A stretch of 64,000 nucleotides of DNA from Escherichia coli (lineage in GTDB: Bacteria; Pseudomonadota; Gammaproteobacteria; Enterobacterales; Enterobacteriaceae), in assembly GCF_044324875.1 (NCBI RefSeq), contig NZ_CP172185.1; one strand, given 5' to 3'. Position 1 is the first letter of the stretch, and the number at the start of each line of letters is the position of its first letter. This document shows positions 56,876 through 57,029 of the stretch, piece by piece. Below the pieces are notes generated by a model. It had not been told where the DNA came from and searched no databases. It saw nothing but the letters and a program-made list of their open reading frames with translations. Position numbers and translations under genes: made by a program.

Positions 56876-56887
56876 TCAGGGAGAATT

Positions 56888-56986
56888 GCCGGATGCGGCG
56901 CAAACGCCTTATTCGGCCTACCATGATCTGCAAATTCAATAAATTGCGATATGTTGTGTAGGCCTGAGAAGCGCAGCGCATCAGGC
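56888..56986. repeat. Two REP palindromic units (BIME-like)
   Basis: gccggatgcggcgcaaacgccttattcggcctac and gtaggcctgagaagcgcagcgcatcaggc in inverted arrangement. Confidence 0.6.
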
Positions 56987-56996
56987 AACCCAGAAG

Positions 56997-57023
56997 AAAG
57001 CCGGATGATCATCCGGCTTTTTT
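56997..57023. terminator. Bidirectional terminator between convergent plsB and ubiA
   Basis: aaagccggatgatcatccggc hairpin followed by T6. Confidence 0.7.
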
Positions 57024-57029
57024 ACATCA

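Follow-up and report, generated by a model that had tools for sequence, protein, structure and literature searches.

REP palindromes of Escherichia coli at plsB/ubiA and lamB/malM: a single-copy BIME-1 and a BIME-2 of variable unit number

Introduction

Between plsB and ubiA, and again between lamB and malM, the stretch of Escherichia coli DNA analysed here (64,000 nucleotides of contig NZ_CP172185.1, assembly GCF_044324875.1, hereafter the window) holds groups of palindromic units in alternating orientation. The question raised by such a locus is what these units are, i.e., members of a dispersed repeat family, namely REP units gathered into BIMEs as proposed in an earlier note made from the sequence alone, or else plain terminators of the flanking genes, genes for small RNAs (sRNAs) or marks left by insertion sequences. 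It can be held with high confidence that both clusters belong to the REP/BIME family, the dispersed extragenic palindromes of E. coli, and that this reading, taken in full, is the best explanation; the three other readings were rejected on the grounds of genome-wide repetition, of Rfam models built on REP units and of an empty site in strain K-12. Both elements are already known, nothing in them departs from the textbook picture, and the units of the mal region are reportedly among the earliest REPs described. With elements named and decades old, the value of the analysis lies mainly in correct annotation. The clusters serve as markers of the plsB and lamB 3' untranslated regions, the repeats explain recurrent BLAST matches as well as ambiguity in assembly and alignment, the clusters are hot spots of strain-to-strain length variation, and REP units are specific landing sites of IS1397, of which the present strain offers a direct example at alr/tyrB.

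Genomic setting

The stretch belongs to the E. coli chromosome and carries plsB-ubiCA-yjbI-malM-lamB-malK in an orientation reverse-complemented relative to K-12. Of the complete E. coli genomes, 5,425 of 5,426 match a 901-bp query taken from the surroundings of the plsB/ubiA site, and the annotation of the match reads plsB and ubiA. From the map of open reading frames (ORFs) and the K-12 annotation, the genes concerned are as follows:

plsB, + strand, ends at 56875
ubiA, - strand, ends at 57030
ubiC, - strand, after ubiA
yjbI-like ORF, - strand, between ubiC and malM
malM, 60444-61373, - strand
lamB, - strand, ends at 61607
malK, - strand, beyond lamB

While plsB (+) and ubiA (-) form a convergent pair, lamB and malM are consecutive, co-directional genes of the - strand in the operon order malK-lamB-malM. 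The earlier note had placed both clusters at convergent gene ends, which is right for plsB/ubiA; for lamB/malM the label is wrong because the two genes follow each other on the same strand, in tandem, within one operon.

Some other features were encountered in the window. At the position of yjbI, an intact ORF of 526 aa (58635-60215) is present, the counterpart of which in strain SHP24 is a SopA family protein according to PGAP; it is a pseudogene in K-12, is frameshifted in SHP24 and is missing from 23AR0762, where ubiC abuts malM. Two Rfam matches at gathering level are expected for the region, namely (i) the sRNA sraL at 28780-28920, which is the RyjA of the K-12 annotation and lies beside soxR, and (ii) a SECIS element at 8430-8484, the end of which just precedes an ORF (8486-10165) corresponding to the portion of fdhF past its in-frame TGA.

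REP units in the window

The REP consensus search by which the earlier note proposed to check its reading was run over the whole 64-kb window as a Hamming scan for the head GCCKGATGCG and the tail TTATCMGGCC set 2-21 nt apart. The paired scan returned 7 units against 0.26 expected from shuffles. For the head alone, 8 occurrences compare with 0.53 expected, and none of 100 dinucleotide shuffles attained this count; the tail motif was counted 9 times against 1.71 expected. Altogether, the window contains 7 intact REP units and 1 split unit, every one of them intergenic. One tail-like match, at 38526-38538, was set aside, as it belongs to a hairpin shortly after tyrB that is not a REP.

A REP unit is understood here as an imperfect palindrome of 30-40 nt with the above head and the tail TTATCMGGCCTAC, and the units of both clusters are of this kind; in all five the head is exact and the tail has 0-2 mismatches to the consensus. 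Four of the five further combine a GTAG/CTAC foot with a stem mismatch, the exception being the lamB-proximal Y unit (61563-61597), which has CCAG for CTAC. Both clusters lie extragenically at the 3' end of genes, convergent ones at plsB/ubiA and tandem ones at lamB/malM, and the family is dispersed, the median number of places matched by a lamB/malM query (megablast) being 28 in each E. coli genome. Structured RNA is predicted from either region, with folding z-scores of -4.6 (plsB/ubiA) and -6.1 (lamB/malM). The palindromic units of alternating orientation described in the earlier note were thus borne out, at the places given there, by reading of the sequence and by a repeat finder, and the REP/BIME identity proposed for them is supported by their sequence, arrangement and repetition.

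Two single units complete the intact set:

10950-10987, - strand, Z2-type unit from the head and tail scan, between the convergent genes yjcO and gltP
21417-21452, + strand, Y-type unit from the head and tail scan, 9 nt past the acs stop codon, acs and yjcH being co-directional

At gltP/yjcO, this one unit compares with 11 in K-12, where they form a 641-bp array; the K-12 count fits the name REP321a-k (10.1101/2024.07.17.603846). At acs/yjcH, the one unit compares with 2 in K-12.

The plsB/ubiA element

The features of the plsB/ubiA intergenic region are the following:

56888-56921, + strand, Y-type unit GCCGGATGCGGCGCAAACGCCTTATTCGGCCTAC, 12 nt past the plsB stop codon, ending in CTAC
56922-56957, no strand assigned, L linker of 36 nt with an IHF-consensus-like site ATTCAATAAATTG at 56934-56946
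56958-56987, - strand, Z1-type (short) unit, inverted, reading TGCCTGATGCGCTGCGCTTCTCAGGCCTAC on the - strand and starting with GTAG on the + strand
56994-57023, no strand assigned, non-REP hairpin with T-run, 13-bp stem AAGAAAGCCGGAT/ATCCGGCTTTTTT, ending 6 nt from the ubiA stop codon

The hairpin predicted for the Y unit (-18.4 kcal/mol) contains a 1x1 mismatch. Y and Z1, each with one mismatch to the tail consensus, stand tail to tail (CTAC facing GTAG) across the 36-nt linker. The core of this L linker, TGCAAATTCAATAAATTGC, agrees at 19 of 19 positions with the consensus of Rfam family ES036. For IHF, the established consensus is WATCAANNNNTTR, of which ATTCAATAAATTG, as read from the sequence, fits 8 of the 9 specified positions with one mismatch.

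A BIME-1 is defined by z1 and y units in single copy and by a long, conserved L linker that often contains an IHF site (PMC3333891). The plsB/ubiA element has the same composition, order, orientation, single copy and L core, at the 3' end of a transcription unit, and differs only by point changes, i.e., the one tail mismatch per unit and a linker variant CCATGATC...GCGATATGTTGT, which is common to the orthologous locus of other Escherichia lineages. Judged by its sequence, it is a single BIME-1 (RIP/RIB) of structure Y-L-Z1 with a predicted IHF site.

The same architecture is found in K-12, with 6 differing positions that all fall within the BIME and none in the neighbouring hairpin. With a 401-nt query, coverage is 80% or more in 5,423 of 5,426 genomes, at nearly always equal length, and this BIME-1 is fixed across complete E. 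coli genomes. In SHP24, the IS66-family element ISCro1 has inserted into the L linker with an 8-bp duplication, CGATGTGT, which is the only insertion there among the sampled genomes.

Terminators and the plsB/ubiA hairpin

Since the units lie directly past stop codons and form stable hairpins, they might be seen as plain Rho-independent terminators of the flanking genes rather than as a repeat family, and many REPs do lie within bidirectional terminators (10.64898/2026.03.23.713779). In this respect, the hairpin at 56994-57023 is instructive. On the + strand it is followed by T6 (-17.9 kcal/mol, z -6.2) and on the - strand by UUUCUUCU (-14.7 kcal/mol), and it is identical in K-12. As such, a GC-rich hairpin with a U-run, i.e., the makings of an intrinsic terminator, is present on both strands at 56994-57023 and at no REP unit. 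It is evident from RNA folding but escaped a simple terminator scan, probably owing to a palindrome that stays perfect across its centre. This hairpin is probably an intrinsic, bidirectional terminator serving both plsB and ubiA; in that case, the 3' untranslated region of plsB would contain the BIME, which for ubiA would lie downstream of the terminator. The range 56876-57029, put forward in the earlier note as a REP cluster, corresponds to the whole intergenic region; it does contain the REP units, but its last 36 nt belong to the separate terminator hairpin.

With a canonical hairpin and T6 already in place beside the BIME, no T-run after any of the five units, no terminator detected by scans at the lamB/malM cluster and unit sequences that recur genome-wide, it is very improbable that the palindromes are plain terminators, and their assignment to the REP family is preferred.

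The lamB/malM element

Between malM and lamB, three units were delineated:

61472-61506, + strand, Y-type unit, malM-proximal, exact match to head and tail, CTAC tail
61521-61557, - strand, Z2-type (long) unit, inverted, with the head motif, part of an naRNA4 match
61563-61597, + strand, Y-type unit, lamB-proximal, with tail CCAG and not CTAC

The layout reads Y, 14 nt, Z2, 5 nt, Y, and the CCAG tail of the lamB-proximal unit is found in every allele examined. In the sense of the mRNA, the first hairpin stem begins 13 nt (about 12) past the lamB stop codon. Scans for terminators and promoters were negative over this cluster, and no T-run follows its hairpins.

The tandem arrangement of Y and Z2 is of the BIME-2 type, which is tied to gyrase (PMC3333891); BIME-2 elements are bound and cleaved by DNA gyrase (Espeli and Boccard 1997, cited in PMC3333891). 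The element at lamB/malM has been named REP316 in a 2024 preprint, according to which DNA polymerase I binding is demonstrated only at the malE/malF and lamB/malM elements (10.1101/2024.07.17.603846). It resembles BIME-2 and REP316 in its alternating Y and Z2 units, its short linkers and its strain-variable unit number, and no difference of substance separates them, the three-unit allele being as in K-12 with 5 point differences. From its sequence, the element can be assigned as a BIME-2 (Y-Z2-Y with short linkers) within the malK-lamB-malM operon.

Rfam searches bring up the other reading of some standing, in which the main role of the clusters would be that of sRNA genes, with an naRNA4-like, HU-binding RNA at lamB/malM and an ES036/CssrF-like one at plsB/ubiA. 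Indeed, the Z2-Y pair at 61524-61594 (- strand) scores 76.1 bits against naRNA4 (RF02564), above the gathering score of 59.5, and fits the model end to end. REP325, by contrast with the three hairpins of lamB/malM, is an array of 12 hairpins in another operon, yjdMN; because naRNA4 models one Z2+Y unit of REP325, the match restates REP homology and does not point to an sRNA gene. At plsB/ubiA, the naRNA4 scores of the units (33.9 and 26.7 bits) are below the gathering score. ES036/CssrF (RF02751) aligns there to the L linker at 56923-56965 but with 26.1 bits against a gathering score of 37.6, and the part in common is the L core only; ES036 is in effect the L linker of BIME-1. Given Rfam models that are themselves built on REP/BIME units and the absence of promoter-like sites from both regions in a scan, sRNA genes are hardly a credible account of the clusters, which are here treated as REP elements.

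Between the BIME-2 and the start of malM, a further hairpin of the form GGGGC-GAAA-GCCCC (mRNA sense, GNRA-type loop) is located at 61432-61445. Conserved in all alleles examined and not followed by a U-run, it could have a role in processing or stability.

Unit-number variation at lamB/malM

Unit number and IS occupancy in the population were inspected in about 40 rows per locus. Variation in the number of tandem copies, as expected of a BIME-2, was found at lamB/malM, where alleles contain 1, 3, 5 or 7 units:

1 unit, O157:H7 Z910
3 units, the present window, K-12 and Nissle
5 units, FDAARGOS_1253
7 units, 23AR0762

In the 5- and 7-unit alleles the spacing from Y to Y is 91 bp, and the length of the array changes in steps of about 91 bp. 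The single unit of O157:H7 is a hybrid that combines parts of the first and the last Y unit, which is the product expected from a deletion between direct repeats. In Nissle, an additional 11-nt deletion adjoins the array.

LamB is the maltoporin and the receptor of phage lambda. One could imagine that the unit number (1/3/5/7) acts as a heritable dial for the LamB:MalM ratio, through graded mRNA protection and partial termination; we consider this rather unlikely. Were it true, copy changes driven by RAYT or by recombination would adaptively tune the level of a phage receptor while leaving coding and promoter sequence untouched.

Proposed roles

Going by published work on the family, the two clusters may act at several levels. 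In RNA, the hairpins would shield the upstream messages (plsB and lamB) from 3' exonucleases; at lamB/malM they may in addition partly halt readthrough into malM, and where a hairpin is located at most 15 nt from a stop codon, the upstream gene may be translated less. REPs have been described both as terminators, partial and partly Rho-dependent, and as stabilisers, which favour the upstream gene in tandem pairs and raise expression of convergent pairs (10.64898/2026.03.23.713779). Counting against the best explanation taken in full, the same work reports a strong dependence on context and no general effect of terminal REPs on half-life (10.64898/2026.03.23.713779). A REP no more than 15 nt from the stop codon can stall terminating ribosomes (10.1101/2024.07.17.603846), and in the window the stop codon and the REP are separated by about 1 nt at yjcO, 9 at acs, 12 at plsB and 13 at lamB.

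At the DNA level, and again by analogy with published work, the L linker would bind IHF and the BIME-2 would bind gyrase and DNA polymerase I. As far as element type can be read from the sequence, IHF would pertain to the plsB/ubiA cluster and gyrase to the lamB/malM cluster, and not both to both.

As for the origin of the units, their spread and amplification would be the work of a Y1 transposase associated with REPs, TnpA_REP/RAYT, the binding and cleavage of which need the GTAG tetranucleotide and the stem mismatch (PMC3333891). Likeness to the REPIN/RAYT (TnpA_REP) system resides in the inverted REP doublets and in the GTAG/CTAC foot and stem mismatch of four of the five units, whereas the lamB-proximal Y unit, with CCAG, lacks the CTAC needed for recognition by TnpA_REP. 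No RAYT gene was found in the 64-kb window. The variation in unit number at lamB/malM may be taken as indirect support for amplification by RAYT/TnpA_REP.

Distribution of the BIME-1 family

Using one genome per bacterial or archaeal species, a search for the 19-mer L core returned 115 stretches. Multiple copies of the core occur in Escherichia species and in Pseudocitrobacter only, at dozens of loci and nearly always between Y and Z1 units. Exact matches to the 19-mer were absent from Salmonella, Citrobacter and Klebsiella in this one-genome-per-species search, and lone L-core matches in unrelated taxa had no flanking units, save for a few tiny, contamination-like contigs.

The whole plsB/ubiA element, of about 100 nt, has full-length alignments, at 82-87.5% identity, with dozens of unlinked loci of Escherichia and Pseudocitrobacter. 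Four loci are true orthologues, with 90-93% identity over about 630-720 nt including plsB and ubiA; they come from two divergent assemblies named 'E. coli' and from two other Escherichia species, so that the element is older than those Escherichia splits.

Several side observations can be made from the same search. Escherichia sp. MOD1-EC7003 contains a tandem Y-L-Z1 array of 8 copies x 107 bp at 96% identity (stretch L107, 2667-3524), and two further stretches (L113 and L114) carry tandem arrays of 5-7 copies; in the literature, BIME-1 is single-copy per locus. Pseudocitrobacter spp. have multiple copies of an E. coli-type BIME-1 (Y-L-Z1 with the exact L core). A perfect E. coli-type BIME-1 was also met on contigs of Desulfosporosinus sp. 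OT (262 bp), Methylobacterium frigidaeris (261 bp), Alkalicoccobacillus porphyridii (720 bp, about 1x coverage) and a Collinsella MAG (3.9 kb); on these short or low-coverage contigs of Desulfosporosinus, Methylobacterium, Alkalicoccobacillus and Collinsella, it probably represents enterobacterial contamination.

IS1397 and the split unit at alr/tyrB

The earlier note had also pointed to an IS3-family element at 39965 as one that targets REPs. This element proved to be IS1397, the archetype among REP-targeting members of the IS3 family, inserted in the loop of a Y unit for which K-12 retains the intact empty site. The arrangement in the alr/tyrB intergenic region is as follows:

39945-39964, - strand, left half of the split Y unit, with flank GGCCGGATAAGGCATTC up to the IS
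39965-44041, + strand, IS1397 (IS3 family), 99.6-99.7% identity to regions named IS1397 by PGAP, target-site duplication TTC
44042-44059, - strand, right half of the split Y unit, TTCACGCCGCATCCGGCA

The K-12 sequence at this site is GGCCGGATAAGGCATTCACGCCGCATCCGGCA, and the two halves joined minus one TTC give exactly that sequence. The physical association of IS1397 with REP units, in the window and elsewhere, could suggest that the units themselves derive from insertion sequences or MITEs, as their scars or ends (e.g., IS1397 footprints), but this is extremely improbable, as the K-12 empty site refutes it (the unit pre-exists and is merely split, with a 3-bp duplication), the units have no similarity to IS1397 ends, and they are present in genomes without IS1397, which is carried by only 1,720 of the 5,426.

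As dispersed repeats that exist before the insertion, REP units are instead the target. Six other copies of IS1397, all of 1,432 bp and from five loci in six genomes, were all found in REP loops with duplications of 3-4 bp; five are in Y units and one in a Z2 unit, which together with the copy of the window makes 6 of 7 in Y-unit loops. Most IS1397-bearing Y units adjoin an L-like linker. Such specificity for REP loops agrees with the literature (PMC1525189; references in PMC3333891). The Y units hit are of the same kind as the plsB/ubiA unit, although the plsB/ubiA and lamB/malM clusters themselves are unoccupied.

At alr/tyrB, IS1397 was found in no other of the 5,426 complete E. coli genomes, including T-HYM1, the closest relative by the plsB region, which has no IS1397 at this site. 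Both arms of the copy in the window share 99.5% identity with the intact copy (1,432 bp) of strain IAI39. Nested between them, at about 40638-43276, is an IS21-family element (istA/istB), the IstB of which is of the ISSso4 family according to PGAP; it follows position ~673 of IS1397 and disrupts the transposase. Positions 667-675 of IS1397 (AGTATGCTG) are present on either side of the nested element, which most likely has TG...CA ends and inserted with a 6-bp duplication, GTATGC. A similar IS1397/IS21 junction is present at another place in strain EC13.
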